Positions 3,915 to 51,805 of a stretch of DNA of 64,000 nt are shown piece after piece; within the stretch, counting starts at the first letter, position 1; each line of letters begins with the position of its first letter. The notes under the pieces are model-generated. The model made no database searches. It was given only the letters and a program-made list of their open reading frames with translations, and was not told the DNA's origin. The stretch spans positions 5,482 to 69,481 of the forward strand of contig CAZZZU010000003.1 in assembly GCA_964658805.1 (NCBI GenBank), in the 5' to 3' direction. Origin of the DNA: an uncultured Steroidobacteraceae bacterium. Lineage in GTDB: Bacteria; Pseudomonadota; Gammaproteobacteria; Steroidobacterales; Steroidobacteraceae. Position numbers and translations under genes: made by a program.

Positions 3915-3937
3915 CTCCCCATTTTGCGAGGTATCCC

Positions 3938-8332: not shown

Positions 8333-8378
8333 GTCCGCTTGAGTTTGTGCCAACCGTTAACTGGTATCATTCGAGGCG

Positions 8379-33044: not shown

Positions 33045-33689
33045 ATGACAAGTGTGTTCGACCCCGCCTGTCGGCGCTGTACTCGGCTGGCGCGCTTTTT
33101 GGACGCCGTTCGCTTCGAAGAGCCTGATTATTATTGCCGACCGGTACCGCCGTTCGGCGACCGGTATGCCAGTCTGCTGATCGTCGGCCTAGCCCCTGGG
33201 ATGCATGGCGCCAATCGCACCGGGCGCCCGTTTACGGGGGACTACGCCGGAATCATCCTGTACCAAACGTTATTTGACCTGGGGTTCGCCACCAGCCCGG
33301 TCTCGGTTGCGGCAGACGACGGTCTGAAGCTCGCCGGCGTCCGGATTACGAACGCCGTGAAGTGCCTGCCGCCGGGCAACAAGCCGTTGCCCGTGGAGAT
33401 TCGGCAATGTAACAGTTATCTGCAGGCCGAGCTCGAACAGAGCCACGATGTCCGCGTCATCCTGGCGCTTGGTGCGATTGCGCATACGGCCGTACTGCAG
33501 GCGTACGGACTGCGCCTCAAAGATCATCGTTTTTCACATGGCGCGGAACACCGCTCGGTGCATGCACCCGTCCTCATCGATTCATACCACTGCAGCCGCT
33601 ACAACACGAATACCCGACGTTTGACGCCTGATATGTTTCGCACCGTCATGACGCGGGCACGCGATCTCGCGGCCACAACGCCGCCATGA
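33045..33689 (+). CDS. uracil-DNA glycosylase, family 4/5 (UdgB-like)
   Basis: Motif GLAPGMHGANRTGRPFTGD; N-terminal Cys pair (CRRCTRL); 214 aa. Confidence 0.82.
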   Translation: MTSVFDPACRRCTRLARFLDAVRFEEPDYYCRPVPPFGDRYASLLIVGLAPGMHGANRTGRPFTGDYAGIILYQTLFDLGFATSPVSVAADDGLKLAGVRITNAVKCLPPGNKPLPVEIRQCNSYLQAELEQSHDVRVILALGAIAHTAVLQAYGLRLKDHRFSHGAEHRSVHAPVLIDSYHCSRYNTNTRRLTPDMFRTVMTRARDLAATTPP

Positions 33690-35530
33690 CCGAGGTCACG
33701 CTCAGTCCGGCGGCCGCGCCATTCGACGCCAAGGCCTTCGTCGATAGCCTACCCACGCGCCCAGGTGTTTATCGGATGCTGGATGCGCAGGGCGAAATCA
33801 TCTATGTGGGTAAGGCGCGCAGCTTGAAGAGCCGCGTGAGTTCGTATTTCCAACCGAGCAACGTGCAGCCCAAGGTGCAGGCGCTGGTCGCGAAGACGGC
33901 CGCCATGGAAGTCACCATTACCAATTCCGATACGGAAGCGCTGCTGCTCGAATATAACCTCATCAAGAAGCACCGGCCGCGCTTCAACGTGGTGTTGCGC
34001 GATGACAAGAGCTTTCCGTATTTGCACCTGGAGACCGCACACGAATTTCCGCGCCTGAATTTCTACCGGGGGTCGCGCAAAGAGCCAGGGCGCTATTTCG
34101 GCCCTTATCCATCGGCCGGTGCCGTACGCGACACCCTGCAGCAGCTACAGAAATTATTCCGAATCCGTAACTGCAACGATTCCTTTTTCTCCAATCGATC
34201 GCGCCCCTGTCTGCAGTACCAGATCGAACGATGCACGGCGCCTTGCGTAGGTCTCGTCAGCCGGGAGCGCTATCAAGAAGACGTTGGTTCTGCCGTCAAG
34301 GTCCTGGACGGGCGCTCTGACGATGTGACCGAAGATATTGCCCGTCGTATGGAAGTTGCCGCGGAACGCCTGCAGTTTGAGGAAGCGGCGCAGCTGCGCG
34401 ATCAACTGGCCAAACTGCGTACCATTCGTTCGCAGCAGATCATGGCGGCCGGCGCCGATCATGAGGCTGACGTGATCGCGCTCGCCAGTGGGAATGGGGA
34501 ATACTGCGTGGCCTTGATGTTCGTGCGCGCGGGGCGGAGCCTTGGTAGCACCACTTTCTTTCCAAAAGCCGCGTTGGCCGAACCACAGGAAGTGATGGCC
34601 TCATTCGTGAGCCAGTATTATCTGGAACGCGACCCACCCGCCGAGATTCTGGTGGCGCTCGAATTCGAAGAAATGCTGCTTCTAGAAGAGGCGTTGACGG
34701 AACGCGCCGCGCGCAAGGTCCGCATCACGGCGTCAGTACGCGGCATCCGCGCACGTTGGCTCGAGATGGTACACAACAACGCTGAACAGGCGCTAAATAT
34801 GCGCCGTCTGACGCGCTCCAACATCGAGGCGACATTGGAAGACGTGCGCGACGCATTTGACCTCGATGAAACGCCATCCCGGTTGGAGTGCTTTGATATC
34901 AGCCATACCGGCGGCACCGATACGGTCGCATCGTGCGTGGTGTTTGGGCTGGAGGGCCCGTTGAAAAACGACTACCGGCGCTTCAACATCACGGGCATCC
35001 AGCCGGGCGATGACTATGCGGCCATGCACCAGGCGCTTACGCGGCGTTACAAGCGGGTTCGCGATGGCGAGGTGCCCAAACCCGATCTGTTGCTCATCGA
35101 TGGCGGCAAAGGGCAGTTGGCAGAAGCCACGCGGGTGATCGCAGAGCTCGGCATCGAGGGCGTCACCCTGATCGGCGTTGCCAAGGGTGCCGATCGCCGA
35201 CCGGGCCAGGAGCAGCTTTTTTTGCCCGGCCAGGAGACGCCTGTGATCCTCCCACCTGAATCGCGTGCACTGCACCTGATTCAGCGGGTGCGTGATGAGG
35301 CGCATCGCTTTGCAATAGGCGGGCATCGACGCAAGCGCGCAAAGCGGCACAACGAGTCCATACTGGAGACCATTCCGGGACTGGGTCCCGTCAAGCGACG
35401 CGACTTGCTCAAGCAGTTCGGTGGACTACAAGGAATCATGCGTGCCGGCATCGACGATTTCACCAAAGTACGCGGCCTCGGGCGCGAGCTGGCCGAGGTA
35501 ATCTATGAACACCTCCACCCGGGCAGATAG
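33686..35530 (+). CDS. uvrC: excinuclease ABC subunit C
   Basis: GIY-YIG (GVYRMLDAQGEIIYVGKA), UVR domain (FEEAAQLRDQL), C-terminal HhH. ATG overlaps the udg stop. Confidence 0.95.
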   Translation: MTEVTLSPAAAPFDAKAFVDSLPTRPGVYRMLDAQGEIIYVGKARSLKSRVSSYFQPSNVQPKVQALVAKTAAMEVTITNSDTEALLLEYNLIKKHRPRFNVVLRDDKSFPYLHLETAHEFPRLNFYRGSRKEPGRYFGPYPSAGAVRDTLQQLQKLFRIRNCNDSFFSNRSRPCLQYQIERCTAPCVGLVSRERYQEDVGSAVKVLDGRSDDVTEDIARRMEVAAERLQFEEAAQLRDQLAKLRTIRSQQIMAAGADHEADVIALASGNGEYCVALMFVRAGRSLGSTTFFPKAALAEPQEVMASFVSQYYLERDPPAEILVALEFEEMLLLEEALTERAARKVRITASVRGIRARWLEMVHNNAEQALNMRRLTRSNIEATLEDVRDAFDLDETPSRLECFDISHTGGTDTVASCVVFGLEGPLKNDYRRFNITGIQPGDDYAAMHQALTRRYKRVRDGEVPKPDLLLIDGGKGQLAEATRVIAELGIEGVTLIGVAKGADRRPGQEQLFLPGQETPVILPPESRALHLIQRVRDEAHRFAIGGHRRKRAKRHNESILETIPGLGPVKRRDLLKQFGGLQGIMRAGIDDFTKVRGLGRELAEVIYEHLHPGR

Positions 35531-36101
35531 GAGCGCCGTTTGGAACGTGCCGAATACGCTCACCTGGCTGCGTATTCTGATGATTCCTGCGGTCCTGGTG
35601 CTTTTTTACTTGCCGTTCTGGTGGGCTCAACCTGCCGCCGGCTTAGGCTTTGGCCTCGCCGGCATCACTGATTCCCTGGATGGTTATTACGCGCGCAAGC
35701 TCGGACAAACCTCGCGTCTCGGCGCCTTTTTGGACCCCGTCGCGGACAAGCTCATTGTCAGCGCTGCCCTGGTGCTCATCGTCAGCCGCGATCCGCGTTG
35801 GTTCCTGGTCATTACGGCGGTCGTGATCATCGGCCGCGAGATCGCCGTGTCGGCGCTGCGCGAATGGATGGCGGAAATCGGCGCGCGCGGGCGGATCAAG
35901 GTGTCTGTGCTGGGAAAGTACAAAACCATCATGCAAATCGTCGGGCTGTCTTTGCTCCTGTTTCGCGAAGACCTTTTCGGGCTGCCTACCTACAAGATCG
36001 GCTTGGTGCTGACAGAGATCGCGGGCGTGCTGACGCTGTGGTCGATGATCCAATATCTGAATCTCGCCTGGCCGGAGCTGCGCAGCAGCTCACGGTTGTA
36101 G
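35505..36101 (+). CDS. pgsA: CDP-diacylglycerol--glycerol-3-phosphate 3-phosphatidyltransferase
   Basis: DSLDGYYARKLGQTSRLGAFLDPVADK motif; conserved position after uvrC. Start is ATG 35505 (overlaps uvrC by 26 nt) or GTG 35547. Confidence 0.9.
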   Translation: MNTSTRADRSAVWNVPNTLTWLRILMIPAVLVLFYLPFWWAQPAAGLGFGLAGITDSLDGYYARKLGQTSRLGAFLDPVADKLIVSAALVLIVSRDPRWFLVITAVVIIGREIAVSALREWMAEIGARGRIKVSVLGKYKTIMQIVGLSLLLFREDLFGLPTYKIGLVLTEIAGVLTLWSMIQYLNLAWPELRSSSRL

Positions 36102-36158: not shown

Positions 36159-36234
<76 letters not shown>

Positions 36235-36474
36235 AAACATCACCCAGCAGTTATCGGCGTGTGTAGCTGTGGATAACTCCTAACATTTGAATCCCGCAGC
36301 TTCTCCGATGTGCTCCGCTCATGGTTTAAGCATCCCGCTTCTGAGCGTCGGGAAAAGATCATTTTTTCCTAATTTTCATAAAGTTAGACAAGAAACATAT
36401 TGGTAATTCTGCAAGTTGTACCGGTTTAGGCCCGGGCGATGGTCGTCTAGCTTTTGCTGGCGCATCAATCGCGG

Positions 36475-36780
36475 TCAAGGCAGCACTCTCAGCGTGTGCA
36501 CTTTGGAGAGGTCCCGATCGTGAGTAACGTGCTCGTCGGCATTGAGGGAGATGGCGCTCGCTGCTTGCACAGCATCCGCAAGCTTGAGACGCAGCGAGGC
36601 GCGCAGTCGGGCCGTAGCGGCAGCGATGTCTGCCTACAATTCGATCAGGTGCCAAGTCTCGAGGACCGCTCGATAACGCTCAGCCAGTGCTTCGTCGCCC
36701 GCTTGCAATGAGCCAGTGAGGACTTCTGCCAAACTGATCGTAGTGACGTCGAACTGAACGCGTTCCGCGTCGTGCTTCAA
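36475..36780 (-). pseudogene. VapC-like PIN-domain toxin remnant (N-terminally truncated, in-frame TAG)
   Basis: Manual translation of the minus strand: LKHDAERVQFDVTTISLAEVLTGSLQAGDEALAERYRAVLETWHLIEL*ADIAAATARLRASLRLKLADAVQAASAISLNADEHVTHDRDLSKVHTLRVLP*. The C-terminal half matches the PIN pattern (..D-a-i-q-l-A-s-A...lvT.D.d). In-frame TAG at 36636-36634. The first acidic PIN motif and any upstream antitoxin are missing. Confidence 0.55.
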
Positions 36781-36909
36781 TCAGGCTTGGCATCGTGTCA
36801 TGGAACCATTCAGGCGCTTTGGCGTGGTGCAGGTGGTGCGGCCAAAGCCATTCCCTTGCCTTGTGCGATAGGGGGCGAACTGCTAGCATTTTGGGCTGAA
36901 TCGCTGAAC

Positions 36910-36942
36910 GCAAACCCCGGACCGCCCGGGGTTTGCTGTTTT
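36910..36942 (+). terminator. intrinsic-terminator-like hairpin 8 nt upstream of tRNA-Cys
   Basis: 11-bp perfect stem GCAAACCCCGG / CCGGGGTTTGC, 5-nt loop, followed by TGTTTT. Confidence 0.5.
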
Positions 36943-36949
36943 AGACGAT

Positions 36950-37023
36950 GGCTAAGTGGCAGAGTGGTCATGCAGCGGCCTGCAAAGCCGTGTACGCCGG
37001 TTCGATTCCGACCTTAGCCTCCA
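36950..37023 (+). tRNA. cysT: tRNA-Cys (anticodon GCA)
   Basis: 74 nt. Acceptor GGCTAAG/CTTAGCC, anticodon loop CTGCAAA, T-loop TTCGATT, encoded CCA. Manual fold shows one C-A mismatch in the T stem. Confidence 0.88.
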
Positions 37024-37092: not shown

Positions 37093-38172
37093 GTGCTTGA
37101 AGCTTCTACGATTCAAAGTCGGCATTCCGATCTCTTCAAATACAGGCGCGGCAATCTGCACGCCACAGCGTCGGTCTGCCGTGTGCCCGAAGAGACCAGT
37201 GCTGACAGCCTCGTCTACCTCAGCGACAGCAAGCATCTCGCAACCCAGGCCTATCAATCCGCCGCAATACTGATCGTGCATGAACGGTTGCTGCCGCAAG
37301 TGCCTGACGAAGATCAATGGAGCGGCTGTCTTTTCACGGTGTCGTCGATCCCGACTGCCATGGCGACCCTATCGAAATATTTTTGTCAGAAGCGCGTGCG
37401 CTTCACGCAATGGGGCGAGCAGCATCCAAGCGCACTCGTGCACCCGAGCGCGACGCTCGGAAAGAATGTGGTTCTGGGACCGTTTTGCGTTATCGGGGCG
37501 AATGCACTGATCGGCGATGACTGCCTGATCGGAAGCCATACGGTAATCGAGAATGACGCGCAGATCGGCGCTCGCACGATGTTGCATCCGCATGTCTTCA
37601 TCGGCTCAGCGTGTGTCGTTGGCACCGATTGTGAGATTCACCCGCACACGAGCGTGGGTAGCGATGGCTTCGGGTATGACATGGATGCAACCGGACGGCC
37701 GATCAAGATCTCTCAGCTGGGCAACGTGGTCATCGGTAATGATGTGGAAATCGGTAGCAACTGTGCCATCGACAGGGCGACGTTGACGTCGACATTCATT
37801 CGCGACGGCGCGAAGCTGGATAACATCTGCCACATCGCTCATAACTGTGACCTGGGTGAAAACGGGTTGTATACGGCCGGCTTCATGATGGCCGGGTCTA
37901 CCAAAATCGGGCGTCAATTCAGAACCGGCGGCAATTCCGTCGTGTCGGCGCATCTGACGCTGGCTGACAACGTTGCCCTGGCGGGTCGTTCAACCGTGAC
38001 GAAAGACATCACCAAACCCGGCGCCTATGCTGGATATCCGCTGCAACCTTTGCAGGAAAGCCTGAAGACCATGGTCAGCCTCGTAAAGCTCCCAAAGATG
38101 CGACGCGAACTGAAGATGATCATGAAGCATATGAACCTTTCTGATCCGAACGGCCCCGAGAACTCAACATGA
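37093..38172 (+). CDS. LpxD paralog (UDP-3-O-acylglucosamine N-acyltransferase family, left-handed beta-helix)
   Basis: Alignable by eye to E. coli LpxD across the hexapeptide-repeat domain ([39 protein letters not shown]), the catalytic His context ([12 protein letters not shown]) and the C-terminal helix. GTG start. Located outside any lpxD-fabZ-lpxA context. Confidence 0.8.
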
Positions 38173-38936
38173 AGACCGTGCTGATGCTGCTGGCCGCTGC
38201 CTGCGCAACAGTGGCCACAGCTCGAGTCGAAGGCGCGCCCACCGATGGTCCGACGAGCATCATTTCGATCTATGGCGGCGGTGCCTTTATTCGCCAGTAC
38301 AGCGGCGCCAGCTACGACGATGGTCATGGTTACGGTTATGACTACGGCTACAGTCCTTACTATCGTGTCTCCAATACTTATTCAGGCAGCGAATTCGGCT
38401 TCGAAGCCCGCATCGTCATGCCATTGGGTTTTTTGCTCGATGTAACAGGCGAGCAGGCCCGCGTCAGTAATCATGGCGACGCCTATAAGGAGCAGCAGCT
38501 GACCGCGGGCCTGGGTTACACCGCGCGGATCGGCAGTCGTTCAAGCTGGTCCGCTGAGGCGTTTTACCAGCATTATCGATTAGGCGAGGATTACGCCGGC
38601 TGCGACTACAGCTGCAACGGCTGGTACAACGCCAATGGCGGCGGCGTCAAAGGTGGTTTCAAGTGGCCGTTTGCTGACCGATGGTTTGGCACACTGAACA
38701 TGAGTGTTTCCTATCTGTCCGGTCAGGGGGCAGATTTCGCTCAGGCGAAAATCGATGGTGCGGTGGGCTATATGTTCACCGACTACACGAGCCTGAGCAT
38801 CGGTGCTTCATCTCAGGCAATGGACCGCACCGACAACCGCTACTACGATGCGTATTACGGTTACGGCTACAACGATGGTTCCAATGACGTTCTGGGGCAC
38901 ACGGCCGTATTCGCGCAGCTCGCCGTGCATTTCTGA
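38169..38936 (+). CDS. small outer-membrane beta-barrel protein (OmpW/porin-like), Tyr/Gly-rich loops
   Basis: Signal peptide [18 protein letters not shown], alternating beta-strand pattern, C-terminal aromatic (LAVHF). ATG overlaps the lpxD-like stop (ATGA). Confidence 0.7.
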
Positions 38937-39001
38937 GCGCGCTGCAGGAATGCTAAACTCGACGCTCGAAGGCCCCTGTCGAGGTGGCCGGGAGCGTCCC
39001 G

Positions 39002-40144
39002 ATGAATGAAGAAATTTCGAATGTCCACGCGTTGCGCGTTGCGAACTCGCCGAATACATTCGACCTTCGCAAGGTCGGCACTCACCCTGATTACTGGTAT
39101 CCGGTAGCTTGGGGAGATGAGCTTCAGCCGGGCAGAACCCTGGCCCGGCGTTTCGCCGGCGAACCGATCGTGCTGTATCGGGGTGCCACCGGCAGGGTCT
39201 ATGCACTCGAGGATCGCTGCGCGCATCGTCAGGTTCCGCTGCATCTCGGCGTCGTGACCGGCGAGGACTTGAAGTGTCATTACCATGGCTGGGTCTACAA
39301 CTGTTCGGGCAAGTGCGTGAATGTTCCGTATATGGGACCGGAGCGGCTTCCCAACGGCGTGAAGGGGTACCCCGCGCGCGAAATCGATGGCCTCATCTTC
39401 ATTTTTCCGGGTGATGCGAGCCTGGCAGAGAGCCGGATCCCGCAAGGACTCGGATCGTCGCAGCGTAAAGACTACAAGACGCGGCGCCTCAACCGCGAAG
39501 TTGCCTGCCATTACACCTTCATGCATGAAAATCTGTTCGATATGAATCATCAGTTCATGCATCGAAAACAGATGGGTTCGATCCGGGCTCGTTGCCTGGG
39601 AAAAGATCATGGCGACAACTGGGCTCAGGTCGAGTATTCCTTCAGTCGCACCGGCGGCAAGTCGTCGGTCGGCGAACAGGTGATCGTCGATTTGATGCGC
39701 AAGCGCGGCGAAGCAAAAAAAGATTTTTGTGATCACATGCGGATTCGCACCGACTATCCGACCCAAAATCTCAAAGTCTGGGTGGGACGCGACATCAAGC
39801 AAAGTGACGATCCGGTGCTCGATGTGTGGCTCGGGTACACGCCGCTCGATGCAGAGCAGCGTACCAATCGCACCTTCGGTTATTTGTCAGTCAAGAAGCC
39901 GGCTATCCCTGGAATCATTCACGTCGTCTGGCCGTTCGTCACCTGGTTCACGGAAAATATCTTTCGCGAAGATAAGGATATCGTCGAGCACGAACAGCGT
40001 GCCTATGATGGACAAGGTGCGGATTTCAATAACGAGGTCTTCCCGCCCATTCGGGACCTGCGCAGCGTATTGGCCCGGTGCGGGTCGACCGCGCAGGCGC
40101 AGCCTCGCGAATCGAACGTCGAGTTTGCCGCGCTCGTAAAATAG
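39002..40144 (+). CDS. Rieske [2Fe-2S] non-heme-iron oxygenase, alpha-subunit type
   Basis: Rieske motif CAHRQVPLHLGVVTGEDLKCHYHGW. Mononuclear-iron region HENLFDMNHQFMH. Start is ATG 39002 or GTG 38984. No reductase or ferredoxin gene adjacent. Confidence 0.82.
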   Translation: MNEEISNVHALRVANSPNTFDLRKVGTHPDYWYPVAWGDELQPGRTLARRFAGEPIVLYRGATGRVYALEDRCAHRQVPLHLGVVTGEDLKCHYHGWVYNCSGKCVNVPYMGPERLPNGVKGYPAREIDGLIFIFPGDASLAESRIPQGLGSSQRKDYKTRRLNREVACHYTFMHENLFDMNHQFMHRKQMGSIRARCLGKDHGDNWAQVEYSFSRTGGKSSVGEQVIVDLMRKRGEAKKDFCDHMRIRTDYPTQNLKVWVGRDIKQSDDPVLDVWLGYTPLDAEQRTNRTFGYLSVKKPAIPGIIHVVWPFVTWFTENIFREDKDIVEHEQRAYDGQGADFNNEVFPPIRDLRSVLARCGSTAQAQPRESNVEFAALVK

Positions 40145-40172: not shown

Positions 40173-42440
40173 TCAATCCGGCGCGTGTCGCGTACGCGGT
40201 GTCGTTATACGCTCGCCGGGATACCAGTTCCAGCGTCCGGCGAGTGCCATCGCCGCCGGTACGACGAAAGCGCGAATCACGGTGCAGTCGACCAGCACCG
40301 AGACGCACAAGCCGACGCCCATCATTTTGAGCACAGGCAGATCGGCTCCCACGAAAGCCCCAAAAACCACACCCATGATCAGACCTGCGCCGGTGATGAC
40401 CGGCGCCACAGCAGCAAGACCATCCACGGTCGCGCGATCGTTATTTCCATCCCGTGCGAACTCACGCTGGATTCGAAACAGCAGAAACAACTCGTAGTCC
40501 ATCGACAGGCCGAAGCTGAGACAGAACACCATCATCGGCACTTCCAATGGGACTGCCGTGAACGGCCGTTCGAGTCCGACCAAACCGTTCAGCCAGCCGA
40601 GCTGAAATACGGCAATCACCGCCCCGATGCCCGCCGCCACGGCCAGCAAATTGGTGATGACGGCCTTGATAGGCAACAAGAATGAGCGAAAGGCGATGAA
40701 CAAAAATACCAGCGTGGCGCAGACCACGAAGGCGAAGATGCGCGGCAGGCTCTTGAACATATAATCATTGAAGTCGTTGTGTTCAGCCGGACTGCCGCCC
40801 AGCATGAGCGTGAAAGGACCTTTCGGCACGATGCTCCCAAGGTCCCGCGTGAGCCGCTCGATCTCCTTGACTGCCAGACCGTTGGCGGGCGTTATCTGAA
40901 ATAGCGCCGAGTGATGATCCTTGCTGATGTACAACTCGCCGATCAACGGATTGCTTTTCATTGCCTGATCGAAATTTTGGTACATCGCCGTGTACTGAGA
41001 CACAGTCACGCCGTCGCGCAGATTGACCGGCGAGGCTACGCTCGTGATGCGGTGATCCGACTGCAATGCGCCGGCATAGTCAATCAGAGACGGCACGTGG
41101 GCGGGATCGAGGATGTTGCTGCCGTCCGTGGTGGTTACGATGGCATAGATGGGAATGGACGCGTTGTCGCTGCGAGCAGCGGTCAGGATCTCGGCCCCTC
41201 GGCGCGCCTCAGTGGTCTTGGGCAGGAACCAGCGCTCGTTGGTGACGCCGCTGTGCGCTTGCAGTAACGGTGCAGCGAGCGCGAGCACGCTGCCTGCCGA
41301 GACCAGCAGCGTCAACAGCGGGTGGCGGACGATCCAGGTGCCCATGCGACGCCACATCGCAGTAGCATCAAATTTGCGCCAACGGCGCGGCAGTACCGGC
41401 CATCTGTCCAGGTAGGGACTCAACAGAACGAGGCTTGCAGGCAACAAGGTGAGCGCGGCGAGGACCGAGACGCAGACCACCAGAGCGCCACCGATGCCCG
41501 CACAGCGTGTTTCGAGAATAGGTGAAAACAGCAGCCCTAAGAATCCGACCATCACTGTCATACCCGACCACGTGATGGTCTGTCCGGCGAGCGCTACCGT
41601 ACCGGCGACCGTCTCGGCGACGGTGGTGCGTGGCGAGTGCTCGCGATAATGCGTGACCATGAGCAAGGAGTAGTCGATCCCGAGTGCGAGTCCGACCATG
41701 GTGACAACGTTGCTTAGGAGATTCGACACTGGCACCAGCACGGCCAGGATATAAGCCAGGCCAAGCGCCACGGTCGTCGTTGCAAGCCCCATCAGAAATG
41801 GCAGGCAGCCCGCCACAAAGGTGCCAAACGCCAGCATCAGGATGATCAGCGTCAGGGGCAGGGCGCGCTTTTCCGCGTGGTCGCCACCTGATGCGCTGAA
41901 CGCATTGACGTCGTAGTCGGCGGCTGGACCACCGGTGACCGCGATTCTGGCGGCAGCGTCCAAATCAACCAGGTCAGCACGTAATGGCGCCATCTGCTCG
42001 CGTATGACGACGACGGCCTTTTGTTGCGATTCGGCATCCGTCGCCGCCAGCCCTACGATGAGCATGGTGGTATGACCGTCTGCGGAGCGCATGTGCGCAT
42101 CTTTCGAGTCCGCATAGCTCGTCACTTTGCGTACTTCATGCAAAGCGCTGAGTTTGGCCTGCGTTTGCGCAATCCAGGCAAGATACGGAGCCGCGTCCAC
42201 CGATTGGGCCGGCGAGACGACGGCGATGACGAGCGGATCGATGTACGGATTGTTGAATTCCGTGCGCAGTATCCTGGCTGCTAGCCAGGAAGGGCTGCCG
42301 TCGATGCCACCGGCGCCGCCCACCGTCACGGTCGGAAATTGATGTTCTCCGACCGCACCGACTGCAATCGCCACGATCCAGAGGGCCACTACGACCCAGG
42401 GATGCGAGGCTACCAATCGGCCTAGCTTATGAAAATTCAA
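40173..42440 (-). CDS. MMPL-family (RND superfamily) lipid transporter
   Basis: 755 aa with two 6-TM bundles and two periplasmic domains. MMPL-type motifs ALGIDYSLLMV and GLSMDYELFLL. Apparent TTG start. Divergent from the phosphonate operon (41-nt spacer). Confidence 0.85.
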   Translation of the reverse strand: MNFHKLGRLVASHPWVVVALWIVAIAVGAVGEHQFPTVTVGGAGGIDGSPSWLAARILRTEFNNPYIDPLVIAVVSPAQSVDAAPYLAWIAQTQAKLSALHEVRKVTSYADSKDAHMRSADGHTTMLIVGLAATDAESQQKAVVVIREQMAPLRADLVDLDAAARIAVTGGPAADYDVNAFSASGGDHAEKRALPLTLIILMLAFGTFVAGCLPFLMGLATTTVALGLAYILAVLVPVSNLLSNVVTMVGLALGIDYSLLMVTHYREHSPRTTVAETVAGTVALAGQTITWSGMTVMVGFLGLLFSPILETRCAGIGGALVVCVSVLAALTLLPASLVLLSPYLDRWPVLPRRWRKFDATAMWRRMGTWIVRHPLLTLLVSAGSVLALAAPLLQAHSGVTNERWFLPKTTEARRGAEILTAARSDNASIPIYAIVTTTDGSNILDPAHVPSLIDYAGALQSDHRITSVASPVNLRDGVTVSQYTAMYQNFDQAMKSNPLIGELYISKDHHSALFQITPANGLAVKEIERLTRDLGSIVPKGPFTLMLGGSPAEHNDFNDYMFKSLPRIFAFVVCATLVFLFIAFRSFLLPIKAVITNLLAVAAGIGAVIAVFQLGWLNGLVGLERPFTAVPLEVPMMVFCLSFGLSMDYELFLLFRIQREFARDGNNDRATVDGLAAVAPVITGAGLIMGVVFGAFVGADLPVLKMMGVGLCVSVLVDCTVIRAFVVPAAMALAGRWNWYPGERITTPRTRHAPD

Positions 42441-42481: not shown

Positions 42482-43165
42482 GTGATGATACGCGATTGGT
42501 CCCGGCACGCCTTCATGCTCAATCTGAAACACCATCGTCCCTGGGATGCGCGTTTGGCGCGCTGGCTGGTTACGCCGCTCAGGGATACCCGTATCACGCC
42601 GAATCATTTGACTACGGCGCGTCTGTTCGTGGGTGTGGCGTCTGCCGCCGCCTTCGTACCCGGCACGTATGGATGGTCAAACCTGGCAGGGTTGCTGCTG
42701 GTGATATCCAATTTTCTCGATCACACCGACGGCGAACTTGCGCGTATCAGCGGCAAAGGCAGCCGGCTCGGTCACTATTATGATTTGGTCAGCGACGCCG
42801 TGGTCACCATCCTTCTGTTTGCCGCCATAGGCATGGGAGTTGGGGTGCGCTCGGACGCGGCATGGATGTTCAACCCGGTGTTATGGGGCGCATTGGCCGG
42901 CGCTTCCATTGCGCTGATTTTTTTCCTGCGCATGCGGATCGAGGCGGTACTCGGCAAGTCCGCTACTCGGCAGGCCTCTTTTAGCGGCTTTGAAACGGAG
43001 GACGTGCTGTATCTGCTGCCATTGGCCACCTTGTTCAACGGCCTGTCTGCATTGTTGATTGCGGCCGCGTTGTGCGCGCCATTGTTCGCGGTGTGGGTCG
43101 CCATAGACTACCGCCGCGTGATGGTGCGGCGCGATGAGTCTGTGCGTCCTGAGGTTTGGGGGTAA
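42482..43165 (+). CDS. CDP-alcohol phosphatidyltransferase-family enzyme
   Basis: Full signature D-x2-DG-x2-AR-x8-G-x3-D-x3-D (DHTDGELARISGKGSRLGHYYDLVSD). Multi-TM, 227 aa. Alternative starts at ATG 42485 and 42515. Confidence 0.85.
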   Translation: MMIRDWSRHAFMLNLKHHRPWDARLARWLVTPLRDTRITPNHLTTARLFVGVASAAAFVPGTYGWSNLAGLLLVISNFLDHTDGELARISGKGSRLGHYYDLVSDAVVTILLFAAIGMGVGVRSDAAWMFNPVLWGALAGASIALIFFLRMRIEAVLGKSATRQASFSGFETEDVLYLLPLATLFNGLSALLIAAALCAPLFAVWVAIDYRRVMVRRDESVRPEVWG

Positions 43166-43933
43166 GTGTCGGCGCGGCTTGCCGGCGGGCAAGTGCCCGT
43201 CGTGGCACCTTCGCGTTCGATGCCATTGACGCAAAGCTTGGCAACGCTCGACCCGCCTTCCTTGCGCCGGGAGTTTCAGCGTCAAGGGGCATTTCTCAGC
43301 CTGAGGCATTTCCTCCCCGTCGAGCTCACCGCCCAACTGGTCGCGGCTGTTGCGGCGGTGGAAGATGCCGTCAACCGGAATTATTTACCCGGCCATAAGC
43401 AGGGCGGCAGTGTCAGCCGTCATAGCATCGATGCACGGGCACCGGCCATCGCGGAGTTGTACCGCGCTCCCGCGCTGCTCGAATTCTTGAGCGCCGTGGC
43501 GGGCGAGCCGCTTTTCGTGTCGCCGCCAGACGATCCGCATGCCTATGCGCTGTATTTTTATACCCGTCCGGGCGATCACATCGGCTGGCACTACGACACC
43601 TCGTATTATCAGGGACGGCGCTACACGCTGCTGCTCGGTCTGATCGACCAATCCTCATGTCGGCTGGAGTACGAACTCCATACCCGCAGTCCCGGTGTTG
43701 CGCCGGTTGCGGGTTCAGTGGCAATCCCTTCCGGCGGGCTGGTGTTTTTTGACGGAGATTCACTACGACATCGTGTCACCCCCTTGGGTGAAAACGAAAA
43801 GCGCGTCTCGCTGACGTTCGAATATGTCACCAACCCGCGCATGCATGCCGGGTGGCGTCTCATTTCCAACATGAAGGACGCGGTGGCCTACTTCGGCTTT
43901 CGTCAAACGTTCAAGCGCTTGTTGAGGCGATGA
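43166..43933 (+). CDS. 2OG-Fe(II) oxygenase (prolyl-hydroxylase-like fold)
   Basis: HxD (GWHYDTS) and distal His plus basic residue (LRHRVTPLGENEKRVSL). GTG directly follows the upstream TAA; alternative ATG 43220. Confidence 0.72.
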   Translation: MSARLAGGQVPVVAPSRSMPLTQSLATLDPPSLRREFQRQGAFLSLRHFLPVELTAQLVAAVAAVEDAVNRNYLPGHKQGGSVSRHSIDARAPAIAELYRAPALLEFLSAVAGEPLFVSPPDDPHAYALYFYTRPGDHIGWHYDTSYYQGRRYTLLLGLIDQSSCRLEYELHTRSPGVAPVAGSVAIPSGGLVFFDGDSLRHRVTPLGENEKRVSLTFEYVTNPRMHAGWRLISNMKDAVAYFGFRQTFKRLLRR

Positions 43934-44916
43934 CCCGCACGGCGACGTGGCTCCTGAGCATCGGGCTGCTGCTCTTCATCGTCGTGATCGCCTCGCAGGG
44001 CCTGCCGGCAGTGCTGTCGACTTTGTCGCGCGCCGGCTGGGGACTGATTCTGGTGGCGCTCTTTCACTTGCTGCCATTGGTCATCGACGCGATCGCTATC
44101 TGGGTGCTGTTTCAGCCGCGGCTGCCAGGTGCTTTGCGAGACGCAGTGCTAACCCGCTGGGTGGGCGAATCTGCCAACAGCCTGATGCCCGGTGGCCAGC
44201 TCGGCGGCCCGGTGTTGATGGCGCGTCGCCTCGCGCAAAACGGCATGGCGTTGGAGAGCGCCGCTGCGGCCATTACGATCAGCACCACCATGCAGACCTT
44301 TGCTCAGATCGTTTTCGCGCTCATCGGTGTCGTTCTCCTGGGTGAACACACCGGGTTTTTGTCCGAGCAGGCATTACGTACAACGGCACTGGTCGCGAGC
44401 GCGTTCCTGGGAGTACAGGTGGTCGGTTTTTATCTGTTCCAGCGCCGCGGCATGTTCGGCAAGGCCACACGTGCCTTGACGCGCTTTTCACGCCGGCGCG
44501 ATTGGACCGACATCGTGAGCCGTGCCGAAGCCATTGATCAGGCCGTGCAGAATACTTACAAGCGGCCCGGCAGCGTTGGCTTGAGCTTTGGCTTGAACCT
44601 GGTCGGGTGGCTCGTCGGCGTGGGCGAGGTTTACCTGATCGCGCAGCTGCTCGGCACCCCGGTGAGCTGGGGCGATGCCGTGTTGCTCGAGAGTCTGGGG
44701 CAGGCAATTCGTGGCGCCGCGTTCCTGATTCCAGGTGCGTTGGGTGTGCAGGAAGGCGGCTACCTGCTGCTCGCACCCCTCGCCGGTCTGCCCCGGGACG
44801 CAGCGCTGGCATTGTCCCTCGCAAAACGTGCGCGCGAACTATTGCTCGGCGTACCGGGACTCATCTACCTGCATCTGGTGTCGCGCGGTAAGATTCGCAC
44901 GCTCTTAAAAACCTGA
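43930..44916 (+). CDS. lysylphosphatidylglycerol-synthase-TM-like (MprF flippase-type / UPF0104) membrane protein
   Basis: Starts at MTRTATWLLSIGLLLFIVV (ATGA overlap). About 8 TM. Conserved IPGALGVQEGGYLLL motif of the family. Confidence 0.75.
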   Translation: MTRTATWLLSIGLLLFIVVIASQGLPAVLSTLSRAGWGLILVALFHLLPLVIDAIAIWVLFQPRLPGALRDAVLTRWVGESANSLMPGGQLGGPVLMARRLAQNGMALESAAAAITISTTMQTFAQIVFALIGVVLLGEHTGFLSEQALRTTALVASAFLGVQVVGFYLFQRRGMFGKATRALTRFSRRRDWTDIVSRAEAIDQAVQNTYKRPGSVGLSFGLNLVGWLVGVGEVYLIAQLLGTPVSWGDAVLLESLGQAIRGAAFLIPGALGVQEGGYLLLAPLAGLPRDAALALSLAKRARELLLGVPGLIYLHLVSRGKIRTLLKT

Positions 44917-44919
44917 GGG

Positions 44920-45681
44920 ATGCGGATGCGGGCGATTATTTTAGCCGCGGGGCGCGGTACGCGCCTCAATCAAGCGGAGCATGAGCATATTCCGAAATGC
45001 CTGCTGCGGTTCGGCGGTATGACCCTGCTGGAGCGGCACCTGCGGTTACTGCGACAGTCGGGAGTTGAGGAGGTCGTATTGGCACTGGGTTTTCGGCATG
45101 ACCTGATTGCCGCGGAACTCGATCGACTGCGGTGGTCACCGCGGCCGCAGATCGTCATCAATGAGCGCTTCGAACTGGGCAGCGTACTCACGGCGCATGT
45201 CGCTGCGGAAGCGATGTGTCGCGGCGGTGACGTTTTGTTGATGGACGCGGATGTGCTCTACGACTCCCGTATCGCGCACGCCTTGACTGCCGGCACGCAC
45301 GCGGTGAATCGCATCCTGATCGACCGCGAGTTCGAGGCCGGCGATGAGCCGGTCAAAGTGTGCGTGCGCGAGGGTGTACCCGTCGAACTGCGCAAGCGCG
45401 TGGAGGCCGACCTACAATTCGACACCATCGGAGAATCCATAGGATTTTTTCGCCTGGATGAAGCGGGCGCCCGACGCCTGGCCACCCTGGTTGCGGCTTA
45501 TGTCCACACTGACAAGGCCGACATGCCGCATGAGGAAGCCGTGCGCGATTTCGTGCGCGAACGGCTTCATGTCGTCGAAGTGACTGACGTGACCGGTGCA
45601 CCCTGGATCGAGATAGATTTTCCGGTCGACGTGGCTCGTGCAGCGAGTCAAGTGCTGCCGCGCCTGCAAACCTTGGAGTAA
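44920..45681 (+). CDS. nucleotidyltransferase (LicC / sugar-phosphate NTase-like)
   Basis: N-terminal [12 protein letters not shown] nucleotide-binding signature; 253 aa. Lies 3 nt after the upstream stop, with a GAGGG Shine-Dalgarno. Confidence 0.8.
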
Positions 45682-45683
45682 AC

Positions 45684-47393
45684 ATGAACGCAACGGTCCA
45701 ATCCGCCTCAGCCTCTGATCCGGCACGCAGCACCGTTGCCCCGCGGCCGAGCCGTACCACTCAGCTGCGCCAAATGCTCGCAAGCCCGCAGCTCGAGTTC
45801 CTGATGGAGGCGCATAACGGCCTGTCGGCGCGCATCGTGCGCGAAGCGGGCTTCAAGGGCGTCTGGGCGTCGGGCCTGTCCATTTCTGCGCAGTTCGGCG
45901 TACGCGACAACAATGAAGCAAGTTGGACCCAGGTCGTGGATAACCTCGAGTTCATGGCGGATGCGAGCGATCTGCCCATCCTGCTCGATGGCGACACCGG
46001 CTACGGCAACTTCAATAATATGCGCCGTCTGGTGCGCAAGCTCGAACAGCGCGGCATTGCCGGGGTCTGCATCGAGGACAAGCAGTTCCCGAAGACCAAT
46101 AGCTTCTTGAACAGTGAGCGGCAGCCGCTTGCCGACATGGAGGAATTCTGCGGCAAGATTGCCGCCGGCAAGGACACGCAGCGTGACCCGGATTTTTGCA
46201 TCGTGGCGCGCGTTGAAGCACTGATTGCCGGATGGGGGATGGAGGAGGCGCTGCGCCGCGCCGAGGCTTACCGACTGGCGGGCGCCGACGGCATTCTGAT
46301 CCACAGCAAACTGTCCAAACCGGACGAGATCGTCGCGTTCGCGCGCGCGTGGGCACGCCGTTCGCCGCTTCTCATCGTGCCCACCAAGTACTACAGCACG
46401 CCGACCGAAGTATTTCGCCAGGCCGGCATCAGTACGGTCATCTGGGCCAATCATCTGGTGCGAGCTGCGGTGTCGGCCATGCAAAGCGTTGCCAAAGAGA
46501 TTCACGCGAGCGAAACCCTGGTGAACGTCGAGGACCGGGTTGCAGCGGTGAACGAGATCTTTCGTCTGCAGGATGCGGACGAATACACGGCTGCCGAAAA
46601 GCAGTACCTGTCGGCTTCGGGAGTGTCGCGTGCGGCAGTGGTGCTGGCGGCGAGCCGCGGCAAAGGGCTCGACGCCATCACGCAGGATAAGCCGAAGGTC
46701 ATGCTGCCGATCGCGGGCAAGCCGCTATTGCGCTGGCTGATCGACAGTTTCAAGAAAGAAAACATCAACGACATCACCGTCGTCGGCGGATATCGGGTTG
46801 ATGCCATCGACCCTGCCGGCATCAAGCTGGTGGTGAACGAGCGCTATGCCGAAAGCGGCGAACTGGAATCGCTCGCATGTGCGATGGACGCGCTCGATGC
46901 CCAAACGGTGATCTCGTACGGTGACATCTTGTTTCGCAGCTATGTATTGCGCGATCTGGCAGAGACCGGCGCGGATTTTGCGGTGGTGGTGGACTCGCAG
47001 CTAGCCGGTGCCGGCCATCACACGGTGCGCGATTTCGCGTACTGCTCGCGTGACGACGACCGCGGCCTGTTCGGCAAAAAGGTTTTGTTGGAGCGCATCA
47101 CGACAGCAGCCACTCGCGATACGGTCGGTACGGTCGCGGCGCAGGGCCGCTGGATCGGGCTGTTGAGCGTCAGCCGAGTGGGCCTCCAGCAACTCAAAAC
47201 CAAGCTCGTACGGATGCGCATGCAAGCCGACTTCGACCAGCTCGACGTGCCGGCACTGCTCAATGCGCTGATTGCGGATGGCGCGGCCATCGAGGTGCAG
47301 TACGTGCACGGGCACTGGCGCGGCGTCAATGATCTCGAAGACTTGCGGCGTGCGGTCGACTTTGCGCACACGCAAACGCCCTTAGGTACCTGA
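45684..47393 (+). CDS. aepX: phosphoenolpyruvate mutase fused to a C-terminal nucleotidyltransferase (PntC-type) domain
   Basis: N-terminal ~300 aa: [47 protein letters not shown]...[22 protein letters not shown]...[11 protein letters not shown] (PEP mutase hallmarks). C-terminal ~250 aa: [11 protein letters not shown]...[14 protein letters not shown] (NTase). Confidence 0.92.
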
Positions 47394-48550
47394 TGATAGC
47401 GGCGCGCGATTTTGTCGATGCGGCACGACTGCGCGGATTCGAATGGTATGCGGGCGTGCCGTGCTCATTCCTGACACCCTTCATCAACTATGTTTTGCAG
47501 GATGACAGCCTGGAGTATGTCTCCATGGCGAACGAGGGCGATGCCGTCGCGCTGATCGCGGGGGTGACGTTGTCAGGCCGTCGCGGCATCGCCATGATGC
47601 AGAATTCGGGTCTCGGCAATGCGGTCAGTCCACTGACTTCTTTGACCTGGACTTTTCGCCTGCCGCAACTCCTGATCGTCACCTGGCGCGGTCAGCCGGG
47701 CATCACCGATGAGCCGCAACACGCATTGATGGGTCCGATCACGCTCAAGATGCTCGACGCCATGGAGATACCGTGGGAGCTGTTCCCAACCGACGCCGCT
47801 GCCATCGGGCCTGCGCTCGATCGCGCTGTCGCATACATGCAGGCGCACGGCCGGCCGTACGCCTTGGTGATGCAAAAGGGGAGTGTGGCGCCGTATGAGT
47901 TGGCGGCGGGAGCCGATGCGATTGCGGCGCCAGCCGCACGCCCGGTGCCGCAACGCCGGCCGCCTCGCACCGCGGAACCGAATGACTCGCGCCATGAAGC
48001 CCTGCGCGAGGTGGTGGCACATACACAGTCGGGCGATGTGGCGGTCCTGGCGACCACCGGCTTCACGGGCCGCGAGCTGTACGCAGTGACGGATCGTGCC
48101 AATCAACTTTACATGGTGGGTTCCATGGGGTGCGTCGCGCCCCTGGCCCTGGGCCTCGCGTTGGCGCGCCCGGATCTGAAAGTAGTGGCGATTGACGGCG
48201 ACGGCGCGGCGTTGATGCGCCTGGGCGCAGTTGCAACGGTGGGTGCCTATGCGCCGCCGAATTTATGGCACTTGCTGCTCGATAACGCCGCGCACGATTC
48301 CACCGGCGGTCAGGCGACAGTATCCCCCTGCGTCGATTTTGCCGCGATCGCTGCGGCCTGCCACTACGCGTCCGCCACGGATAGCGAGGCCGCTTCGGAC
48401 ATCGGCGCATGGCTCGGCACGCGCAAGTCCGGACCGCATTTCCTGCGGGTCAGGATCCGGCCGGGCGCCGCGCCCGATTTACCACGCCCCGCGGTAACGC
48501 CAATGCAGGTCGCGGAGCGGTTCATGCGACAGATCGGCGCACGACACTGA
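47393..48550 (+). CDS. aepY: phosphonopyruvate decarboxylase (TPP-dependent)
   Basis: 385 aa. N-terminus FEWYAGVPCSFLTPF is typical of Ppd. TPP-binding region GSMGCVAPLALGLA...IDGDGAALM. Start shares 1 nt with the aepX stop. Confidence 0.9.
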   Translation: MIAARDFVDAARLRGFEWYAGVPCSFLTPFINYVLQDDSLEYVSMANEGDAVALIAGVTLSGRRGIAMMQNSGLGNAVSPLTSLTWTFRLPQLLIVTWRGQPGITDEPQHALMGPITLKMLDAMEIPWELFPTDAAAIGPALDRAVAYMQAHGRPYALVMQKGSVAPYELAAGADAIAAPAARPVPQRRPPRTAEPNDSRHEALREVVAHTQSGDVAVLATTGFTGRELYAVTDRANQLYMVGSMGCVAPLALGLALARPDLKVVAIDGDGAALMRLGAVATVGAYAPPNLWHLLLDNAAHDSTGGQATVSPCVDFAAIAAACHYASATDSEAASDIGAWLGTRKSGPHFLRVRIRPGAAPDLPRPAVTPMQVAERFMRQIGARH

Positions 48551-49620
48551 TGCTGCTGCTCAACCCGGGACCCGTGACGCTGTCAGAGCGCGTGCGCCGC
48601 AGTCTGCTCAATCCCGATCTGTGTCATCGCGAGAGCGAGTTCTTCGACTTGCAAACGGAAGCGCGGAGCCGCTTGCTCGAGGTTTACGAGCTGGACCCGG
48701 CGCGCTGGAGCGCCGTGCTCATGACGGCCTCGGGCACGGGCGCTGTGGAGAGCATGGTGGCATCGGTCGTGCCGCGCGACGGGCGCCTGCTCATCGTCGA
48801 GAATGGCGTGTATGGCGAGCGCATCGCACAGATGGCGCAGCAGTACGGCATTCGCCATCAACGTATGCAGGGCGAGTGGTTGCGGGCGGTGGACTTTGAC
48901 GCGCTGGCGCAGCAGCTGGCGGCCGCTGTGCAAGATCGCTTTACGCATGTGGCCGTGGTCCATCATGAAACGACGACGGGACGGTTGAACGATCTGCGGG
49001 AAATGCGCCGTGTCTGTTGCTCGCATGGCGCCAAGTTGCTGGTCGACGCGGTCAGCAGTTTCGGTGCGGAGACGATCGAATTCGATGCAACGCTCGCGGC
49101 CGTTGCGGGCACCGCCAACAAGTGCCTGCATGGCGTGCCGGGTGCTGCTTTCGTGGTGGTCAATCGTGATGCTCTCGAAACGACGGCGAGCCGAACCTAC
49201 TATCTGGACCTCTTGCGTCTGGCGCAGGCTCAGGATCAGCGCAACACGCCGTTCACGCCGTCGGTGCATGCTTACTATGCGCTGGTTGAAGCGTTACGCG
49301 AGTACGCGGATGAAGGCGGCCTGAGCGTGCGCCATCGGCACTACGCGGATCTGGCTGAGCAGGCCAGAGCCGGTCTTGCGGGACTCGGGATTGGCGCAGT
49401 GCTGGCGCCGGCGCAGTCCTCGGTGGTTCTGCGGGCGTACGCGTTACCGGCCAACTTGAGCTATTCGCAGTTACACGATGCGTTGAAAGCAGAGGGCTTT
49501 GTTATCTACGCAGGTCAGGGGCCTTTGTCGAAGACGTTGTTCCGGATCTCCACCATGGGTGCGTTGACGCGCGCTGACATCGACCGCTTGTTGAAATGTT
49601 TCGCCCGGTTGATGCGGTGA
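48550..49620 (+). CDS. aepZ: 2-aminoethylphosphonate:pyruvate aminotransferase
   Basis: Starts at MLLLNPGPVTLSERV. Class V aminotransferase with a PLP-Lys context (GTANKCLHGVPG). Start shares 1 nt with the aepY stop. Confidence 0.88.
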   Translation: MLLLNPGPVTLSERVRRSLLNPDLCHRESEFFDLQTEARSRLLEVYELDPARWSAVLMTASGTGAVESMVASVVPRDGRLLIVENGVYGERIAQMAQQYGIRHQRMQGEWLRAVDFDALAQQLAAAVQDRFTHVAVVHHETTTGRLNDLREMRRVCCSHGAKLLVDAVSSFGAETIEFDATLAAVAGTANKCLHGVPGAAFVVVNRDALETTASRTYYLDLLRLAQAQDQRNTPFTPSVHAYYALVEALREYADEGGLSVRHRHYADLAEQARAGLAGLGIGAVLAPAQSSVVLRAYALPANLSYSQLHDALKAEGFVIYAGQGPLSKTLFRISTMGALTRADIDRLLKCFARLMR

Positions 49621-51718: not shown

Positions 51719-51805
51719 GCCCTCGTGGCGGAATCGGTAGACGCAACGGACTTAAAATCCGTCGGCCGCAAGGCCGTGCCGGTTCGAGTCCGGCCGAGGG
51801 CACCA
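51719..51805 (+). tRNA. leuZ: tRNA-Leu (anticodon UAA)
   Basis: 87 nt with a long variable arm. GCCCTCGTGGCGGAATCGGTAGACGC...; anticodon loop CTTAAAA; T-arm GGTTCGAGTCC; encoded CCA. Confidence 0.95.

Follow-up and report, generated by a model that had tools for sequence, protein, structure and literature searches.

The window analyzed here is a 64,000-nucleotide stretch from an uncultured Steroidobacteraceae bacterium, corresponding to positions 5482 to 69481 of contig C3 in its draft genome, G000 (4.29 Mb in 215 contigs, 99% complete). Next to a tRNA-Cys gene, it contains three adjacent genes on the same strand that code for a second UDP-3-O-acylglucosamine N-acyltransferase (LpxD2), a small outer membrane β-barrel, and a Rieske oxygenase. 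Further downstream lies an operon that includes the genes for a CDP-alcohol transferase and for phosphonate synthesis (Table 1). A preliminary description of this DNA took the three genes for a single module. Comparison with related genomes and metagenome loci suggests that two unrelated things probably stand side by side here: an accessory LpxD and a barrel that are cargo in a variable slot, and a Rieske oxygenase that goes with the downstream operon.

Gene order around tRNA-Cys

The Rieske gene has been compared in 80 metagenome loci, of which 74 have enough flank for scoring of the operon and 53 include an upstream tRNA-Cys. In relatives, this gene comes right after the uvrC-pgsA-tRNA-Gly-tRNA-Cys string and ahead of the CDP-alcohol operon. 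Operon genes adjoin it in 70 of the 74 loci (downstream in 61 and upstream in 9), and its distance from tRNA-Cys is only 21 to 187 nt in 43 of the 53. Because its position is conserved on both sides, the Rieske gene appears to be a member of the neighboring CDP-alcohol/phosphonate operon and not a companion of LpxD2. In the other 10 of the 53 loci, the gap to tRNA-Cys measures 0.6 to 5.6 kb and is filled with unrelated cargo: a Phenol_MetA_deg barrel, an AbiEii-type ATPase, a family 2 glycosyltransferase with an FkbM methyltransferase, GGDEF-EAL proteins, a major facilitator superfamily transporter with a hydrolase, a T2SSE ATPase, and HicB. Judging from these contents, the tRNA-Cys/Rieske gap is a hypervariable slot, occupied by unrelated genes in other lineages.

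Neither LpxD2 nor the barrel is found in any of the 80 Rieske loci. LpxD2 itself has been compared in 80 loci, kept out of 177 matching stretches in a collection of species representatives, and none of these has a homologue of the barrel, the Rieske oxygenase, the MMPL transporter, or the CDP-alcohol transferase within 4 kb of LpxD2. The three-gene arrangement of the window thus occurs in 0 of the 80 loci of either set, and the proposed module is not borne out. Genomes G010 and G024 encode LpxD2 and lack the Rieske orthologue, and G008 and G012 encode the Rieske protein and lack LpxD2. As the two genes are uncoupled across genomes, the idea that they jointly make an N-acylated aminoethylphosphonate (AEP) lipid finds no comparative support.

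The arrangement as such is not an assembly artifact, since an independent 2.3-kb contig, L172, matches it at ~99% identity, running from LpxD2 through the overlap and the barrel gene into the start of the Rieske gene. The overlap consists of 4 nt (ATGA), in which the TGA stop codon of LpxD2 overlaps the ATG of the barrel gene: ACATGAAG. The three genes had also been described as lower in GC than the operon and, for that reason, as a possible separately acquired submodule. The difference is real and mild: the G+C content at third codon positions (GC3) is 0.66 to 0.675 in the three genes (21st to 25th percentile of long open reading frames [ORFs]), whereas the operon genes range from 0.68 to 0.77 and the median of the genome is 0.724. 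It is no marker of an acquired piece, because the positionally conserved Rieske gene shares this value, and the GC3/codon-position comparison failed to separate the inserted genes from the Rieske gene. Separate acquisition is nevertheless suggested for LpxD2 and the barrel by synteny and phylogeny; for the Rieske gene, as a conserved operon member, it is not.

Table 1. Features of the tRNA-Cys region (coordinates refer to the window)
Feature	Coordinates	Strand	Evidence or remark
uvrC	33686-35530		Upstream of the three genes
pgsA	35505-36101
tRNA-Gly	36159-36234
tRNA-Cys(GCA)	36950-37023	+	ARAGORN; left border of the putative variable cargo slot
LpxD2, 359 aa, GTG start	37093-38172	+	TIGR01853, NF002060; putative accessory UDP-3-O-acylglucosamine N-acyltransferase paralog
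Small 10-stranded outer membrane barrel, orphan family, 255 aa	38169-38936	+	AlphaFold2 model
Rieske/mononuclear-iron oxygenase	38984-40144 (probable start, ATG at 39002)	+	Rieske and VanA_C matches
MMPL-family resistance-nodulation-division (RND) transporter	40173-42440	-	MMPL, 261 bits; between the Rieske and CDP-alcohol transferase genes
Operon: CDP-alcohol transferase, 2-oxoglutarate oxygenase, HpnL-like protein, NTP-transferase, Ppm, Ppd, aminotransferase, Omp85	42482-50957	+	Pfam, NCBIfam
Class III cyclase			Downstream of the operon
tRNA-Leu	51719-51805		After the cyclase

The spacer between tRNA-Gly and tRNA-Cys (36235-36949, 715 nt) contains only a 98-aa minus-strand ORF with no family match and, just before tRNA-Cys, a hairpin and a subsequent T-run. 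In relatives, the same spacer carries 4.7 to 5.4 kb of differing cargo: G003 has genes for a PIN protein, an AAA ATPase, and a hybrid histidine kinase, and G022 has genes for Asp-protease/TPR, HDOD-GGDEF, and PAP2 proteins. The MMPL gene is found in G013, G003, the metagenome contig L050, and 7 of the 80 metagenome loci; it is absent from most and seems to be an optional extra of the operon. Genome G022 (locus L037, G022:C4:299500-319400) lacks the operon genes from the CDP-alcohol transferase through the NTP-transferase, and its Rieske gene is immediately followed by the Omp85 homologue, the cyclase, and tRNA-Leu; its uvrC matches in several pieces and may be frameshifted.

The LpxD2 clade

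LpxD2 begins 69 nt downstream of tRNA-Cys and is, as the preliminary description had it, a full-length LpxD homologue. It exceeds the cut-offs of both LpxD models, scoring 277.4 bits on TIGR01853 (lipid_A_lpxD; cut-off 242.5, model positions 24 to 323) and 299.1 bits on NF002060 (cut-off 207). The protein carries the HIAHNCDLG motif and scores 92 bits on Hexapep, which represents the hexapeptide repeats of the left-handed β-helix. It aligns with Escherichia coli LpxD (3eh0) through residue 340, C-terminal helix included, as well as with the LpxD structures of Chlamydia and Acinetobacter. Like the E. coli (3EH0, 4IHG) and Chlamydia trachomatis (2IU8) enzymes, it has a β-helix and a C-terminal helix, preceded by a divergent, putatively uridine-binding N-domain. 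The canonical lpxD of the same genome is found on contig C22 (361 bits) in the order skp-lpxD-fabZ-lpxA. LpxD2 is therefore a second LpxD and not a relocated housekeeping gene; it lies outside this cluster, which is the typical, not the obligatory, place of an lpxD gene. The two proteins are 32% identical, and LpxD2 has one extra hexapeptide coil.

Alignment to 3eh0, with residue roles taken from a review (PMC6286764), maps the E. coli catalytic base His239 to His250 of LpxD2, the oxyanion residue Gly257 to Gly268, Asp232 (hydroxyl recognition) to Asp243, and His276 (pyrophosphate contact) to His287. All four are invariant in 93 members of the LpxD2 clade; in E. coli LpxD, the H276A replacement lowers kcat 32-fold (PMC6286764). 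The equivalent of E. coli Q236 is H247, a His that is likewise invariant in the 93 members. The uracil-stacking Phe41 corresponds to Tyr42, a position held by Tyr or Phe throughout the clade. The local N-terminal motif, aromatic-x-x-D-S-basic-H, resembles in type that of the canonical LpxD of the genome. An Arg that is invariant across the clade (Arg299) occupies a position where the canonical enzyme has Tyr. The hydrocarbon ruler, Met290 in E. coli, is Thr301 in LpxD2 and Ser, Thr, or Asn in all clade members. The same position is Leu in the canonical LpxD of G000 and Gly in the LpxD of C. trachomatis, which transfers a C20 chain (PMC6286764). A small polar ruler residue in place of the Leu of the housekeeping copy suggests that the two enzymes might differ in chain length; that LpxD2 would attach a different, probably longer, N-linked chain is the most economical prediction.

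Homologues with 59 to 72% identity are found in about 21 of 24 same-genus genomes compared. All 80 LpxD2 loci come from metagenome-assembled genomes (MAGs) labeled as Steroidobacteraceae, Steroidobacterales, Gammaproteobacteria, or Proteobacteria, and none of 120 genomes sampled across Pseudomonadota contains an LpxD2 match above 43% identity. In a tree with 41 canonical LpxDs of Pseudomonadota, the LpxD2 clade is monophyletic, with 100% support in the Shimodaira-Hasegawa-like approximate likelihood ratio test (SH-aLRT) and a stem of 1.04 substitutions per site. It lies outside all the canonical sequences sampled (99%), among which those of the order form a clade of their own. This position argues that the LpxD2 paralog is old or foreign and not a recent duplicate. 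A second LpxD in G035, from another family of the same order (L026:10181-11212, minus strand; 284 bits on TIGR01853), is 36 to 38% identical to LpxD2 and groups with the clade on a long branch, a placement that may reflect long-branch attraction.

In the relatives examined, LpxD2 genes are always located outside lpx clusters. A gene for an EamA-type transporter, identified by eye from its translation, directly follows LpxD2 in 47 of the 80 loci, and after it come a ZIP transporter and a Cys/Met pyridoxal phosphate-dependent (PLP) enzyme. None of the neighbors at this usual locus (EamA, ZIP, the Cys/Met PLP enzyme, and an enoyl-CoA hydratase) points to lipid A. A metallophosphatase beside one LpxD2 homologue was considered as a candidate LpxH and rejected, as it gives only weak YfcE-type matches. 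G000 keeps the EamA neighborhood on contig C118, without LpxD2. There, a different short ORF (G000:C118, ~8150-8690), by eye resembling 3-methyladenine DNA glycosylase, sits between the EamA and enoyl-CoA hydratase genes; in relatives, the same locus contains LpxD2 and a gene of variable length (541 aa in G010 and 370 aa in G002).

The copy in the tRNA-Cys slot does not follow the phylogeny of its genome. A UvrC tree groups G000 with G010, G002, G011, G016, and G017, whose LpxD2 is of the EamA-linked type, whereas the LpxD2 of G000 falls in a separate subclade (19 rows, 99% SH-aLRT). Among the members of this subclade are copies from genomes nested elsewhere by UvrC and metagenome proteins encoded beside HxlR/flagellar or GH127/metallophosphatase genes. 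In approximately unbiased (AU) tests, the LpxD2 data reject the UvrC split (P = 2e-5 and 1.5e-4), and the UvrC data reject the LpxD2 split (P = 3.5e-3). The conflict suggests transfer or hidden paralogy: either there would have been exchange within the family with loss of the resident copy, or two old subtypes would have been sorted differentially. On both accounts, the slot copy appears to be no positional orthologue of the EamA-linked genes.

Contig L172 offers a second view of the insertion. Its similarity to the window begins at the last 23 nt of tRNA-Cys; upstream, it has unrelated, AT-richer DNA (L172:1-195, compared with window positions 36813-37000), which would fit integration of an element into the tRNA-Cys of that strain or, alternatively, a chimeric contig. 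Over the two inserted genes (37093-38936 in the window, L172:281-2124), LpxD2 shows 11 nucleotide differences (5 synonymous and 5 nonsynonymous codons) and the barrel gene shows 1 (Fisher P = 0.019), with the reservation that the coverage of L172 is about 2x and some differences may be sequencing errors. The C-terminal tail of LpxD2 is ~3 residues longer than in its relatives and extends into the ATG of the barrel gene, so the overlap may be a by-product of the junction.

A second LpxA of 261 aa, also encoded outside the lpx cluster (L003:1198-1983, minus strand, the same as G000:C56:25460-26242), passes the cut-offs of TIGR01852 (237.4 versus 231.05) and NF003657 (245.8 versus 226). It was considered as a companion of LpxD2 and rejected, as it is present in only 3 of 25 genus genomes (G000, G020, and G024, with 65% identity in the latter two).

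The barrel and the Rieske oxygenase

The barrel protein has an N-terminal signal peptide-like helix and a C-terminal Phe. AlphaFold2 (AF2) with an alignment of 45 homologues predicts a signal helix followed by a 10-stranded β-barrel, with a predicted local distance difference test (pLDDT) score of 81 and a predicted template modeling (pTM) score of 0.73; the single-sequence model, with a pLDDT of 28, is unusable. The 255-aa signal-peptide barrel and its ATGA overlap with LpxD2 are thus as originally described. The protein has no match in Pfam or NCBIfam, an exact-sequence look-up returns no record, and the homologues detected, only 54, are all labeled hypothetical. Foldseek searches with the model give OpcA as the top match (TM score 0.57 to 0.68), followed by generic porin and autotransporter barrels; PagP, PagL, and LpxR are absent among the 50 best matches listed. 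An Atlas search leads to generic OMP_b-brl clusters. OpcA-like barrels share the 10 strands, the length of about 250 aa, and the long extracellular loops, which in the barrel model contain conserved cysteines. However, sequence identity to OpcA is 7 to 8%, the barrel has no family assignment, and, while OpcA is a neisserial adhesin, nothing suggests an adhesin role for the barrel. PagP and PagL have 8 strands each, and LpxR has 12.

Barrel homologues are found in at least seven unrelated contexts, including those with TonB-dependent receptors, ECF/FecR, OmpA, a PIN-Phd pair, and another Rieske gene. In L050, which comes from a closer relative, the order is tRNA-Cys, barrel, SnoaL, Rieske, MMPL, and CDP-alcohol transferase, with no LpxD2. 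On contig L173 (positions 2124-4710), from another organism in the sample that yielded L172, a homologue of the barrel gene follows a different Rieske/KshA_C oxygenase gene at a distance of ~800 nt, the two being separated by one opposite-strand gene; this is a second instance of the two gene types lying close together, probably by coincidence.

The Rieske protein matches PF00355 (81.5 bits) and PF19112 (VanA_C; 45.6 bits) and contains the motifs CAH...CHYH and NLFDMNHQFMH. Since its relatives align only from residue 4 to 7 onward, ATG 39002 is the likelier start. Its orthologues are 78 to 89% identical and hence far better conserved than LpxD2. As previously described, the enzyme comes without obvious electron transfer partners: none of the genes scanned between 33 and 55 kb encodes a reductase or ferredoxin domain. 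The best curated match is the 4β-methylsterol monooxygenase SdmA (NF052579), with 145.8 bits against a cut-off of 600, and the nearest solved structures are those of DdmC, carbazole dioxygenase, SxtT, and KshA. The monooxygenases of the VanA, KshA, and SdmA types have the same organization, with a Rieske CxH...CxxH motif and a VanA_C-type domain in a single α subunit of ~380 aa. Unlike these enzymes, of which SdmA is a bacterial sterol C4-methyl oxidase, the Rieske gene described here is fixed at the head of the CDP-alcohol/phosphonate operon. In loci L256, L258, L260, L262, L263, L267, L278, L280, and L290, it instead stands last in the operon, on the 3′ side of Omp85. The conserved operon position argues that the enzyme might tailor the operon product. 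The genome also encodes a squalene-hopene cyclase (848 bits), which makes a hopanoid-type substrate possible.

Possible functions and alternative readings

The best reading of LpxD2 makes it an accessory N-acyltransferase for lipid A that prefers a different acyl chain, for which Francisella and Leptospira provide precedents. The remodeling of N-acyl chains by a second LpxD, which the preliminary description had brought up, is accordingly retained. Francisella LpxD1 and LpxD2 form a temperature-dependent N-acyltransferase pair, in which one copy is found in the lpxD-fabZ-lpxA cluster and the other elsewhere, as in G000. The Francisella copies are 34% identical, similar to the 32% seen here, and their LpxD2 is of separate origin, not a recent duplicate; by analogy, a different N-linked chain length would be the expected outcome. 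In contrast to Francisella, the Steroidobacteraceae clade is a separate lineage whose gene changes loci and is missing from some relatives. Two annotated lpxD copies are also present in most of the genus Leptospira, where they have been proposed to compete for the UDP-acyl-GlcN intermediate, resulting in mixed lipid A. Francisella is a host-associated pathogen, and the lipid A chemistry of Leptospira is known; the organism studied here is an uncultured soil bacterium.

On this reading, LpxD2 would be expressed and would work as a trimeric left-handed β-helix acyltransferase, transferring an (R)-3-hydroxyacyl chain from acyl-acyl carrier protein to the 2-amine of UDP-3-O-acyl-glucosamine, alongside the housekeeping enzyme encoded in the skp-lpxD-fabZ-lpxA cluster. 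With Thr301 at the end of its pocket, it would install a different, likely longer, chain, giving rise to a second lipid A acylation state. LpxD2 and the roaming barrel gene would be this lineage's occupants of the tRNA-Cys/Rieske slot. The LpxD2 copy would derive from another LpxD2 subclade, whether it was transferred between members of the family or old paralogs were lost differentially. The Rieske oxygenase would be the lead gene of the CDP-alcohol/phosphonate lipid operon, with its role there.

Several observations weigh against this interpretation. The N-domain of LpxD2 scores only 17 bits on PF04613 (E = 0.005), below the cut-off of 30.8, compared to 67 bits for the canonical copy; it is divergent, and a changed acceptor is possible. 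The predicted chain length leans on a single ruler residue and on analogy with other enzymes. The 4-nt overlap, kept in the second strain, would fit a coexpressed functional pair, and the excess divergence of LpxD2 over the barrel could mean relaxed constraint, although at the low coverage of L172. A tRNA-integrated genomic island should have an integrase and a repeat of the tRNA 3′ end, but there is no integrase gene among the genes at 36 to 52 kb, the 3′ end of tRNA-Cys is not repeated anywhere in the window, and no direct repeats flank the insertion. The variable content of this site is seen all the same.

A divergent N-domain could mean that the clade as a whole has switched to another nucleotide-amino-sugar or a non-lipid A amine, independently of its neighbors. 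The long stem outside the sampled canonical LpxDs, the constant location outside lpx clusters, and the invariant Arg299 in place of Tyr agree with such a switch, but LpxD2 passes the curated equivalog cut-off over its full length and keeps the uracil-stacking aromatic residue, the equivalents of D232, H239, G257, and H276, and an N-terminal motif like that of the canonical copy, which makes this alternative unlikely. The more specific version, in which the clade has left lipid A to N-acylate another UDP-amino-sugar or an aminolipid head group, its place ahead of the phosphonolipid operon then allowing an N-acylated AEP lipid in this strain, draws on the same tree position and subthreshold N-domain and seems very unlikely. 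As for LpxD2 being a decaying passenger that recently moved here and no longer functions, roughly every second codon that differs between the strains is changed nonsynonymously, the divergence exceeds that of the barrel, no promoter-like site is found in the 69-nt spacer, and the homologue in G020 is interrupted by TGA stops. Nevertheless, the 359-aa ORF is intact and of normal length, all catalytic residues are present, the genus has largely retained the clade, and some of the differences could be sequencing errors; decay is highly improbable.

The readings that join LpxD2 to its neighbors start from the compact layout. If LpxD2 and the barrel formed a real pair, the barrel would act or depend on a lipopolysaccharide (LPS) species, as a lipid A-modifying enzyme or as an LPS-specific porin or adhesin; its predicted outer membrane location and an ATGA overlap that implies translational coupling and is conserved in the independent contig speak for this. 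However, LpxD2 is missing from all other barrel contexts examined, including the tRNA-Cys slot of L050, and LpxD2 lacks the barrel in all 80 loci. The fold search brings up OpcA and generic barrels, the strand number differs from those of the known lipid A-modifying barrels, and the extended LpxD2 tail fits an accidental junction, so that a functional pair appears quite unlikely. Cooperation of all three genes, whether to make an alternative lipid A or to N-acylate an AEP head group with acyl tailoring by the Rieske enzyme, would account for their adjacency on one strand, the short distances (the overlap and 47 to 65 nt from the barrel to the Rieske gene), the absence of a predicted terminator-like site between them on the plus strand, the recurrence of the arrangement in the second strain, and the slightly low GC3 of all three. 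Against it stand the tie of the Rieske gene to the operon, with neither LpxD2 nor the barrel nearby in any of those loci, the absence of phosphonate, CDP-alcohol transferase, or Rieske genes near LpxD2 in the 80 loci, the independent occurrence of LpxD2 and the Rieske gene, the unrelated cargo in the slot elsewhere, and the UDP-sugar-type residues that LpxD2 shares with normal LpxDs. Such cooperation is highly improbable.

All close relatives of G000 are MAGs from soil, peat, or freshwater, and LpxD2 appears to represent a lineage of accessory acyltransferases for lipid A with a wide distribution in Steroidobacteraceae, an abundant uncultured family of soil and peat. Annotation should treat the Rieske oxygenase gene as part of the core of the phosphonate/CDP-alcohol lipid operon, and the tRNA-Cys slot offers a clean case of a hypervariable islet that creates misleading “operons.” The LpxD2 clade, together with the sporadic second LpxA, predicts mixed lipid A acylation in these bacteria. 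If borne out, this would extend the two-LpxD idea from pathogens, such as Francisella and Leptospira, to free-living soil bacteria.

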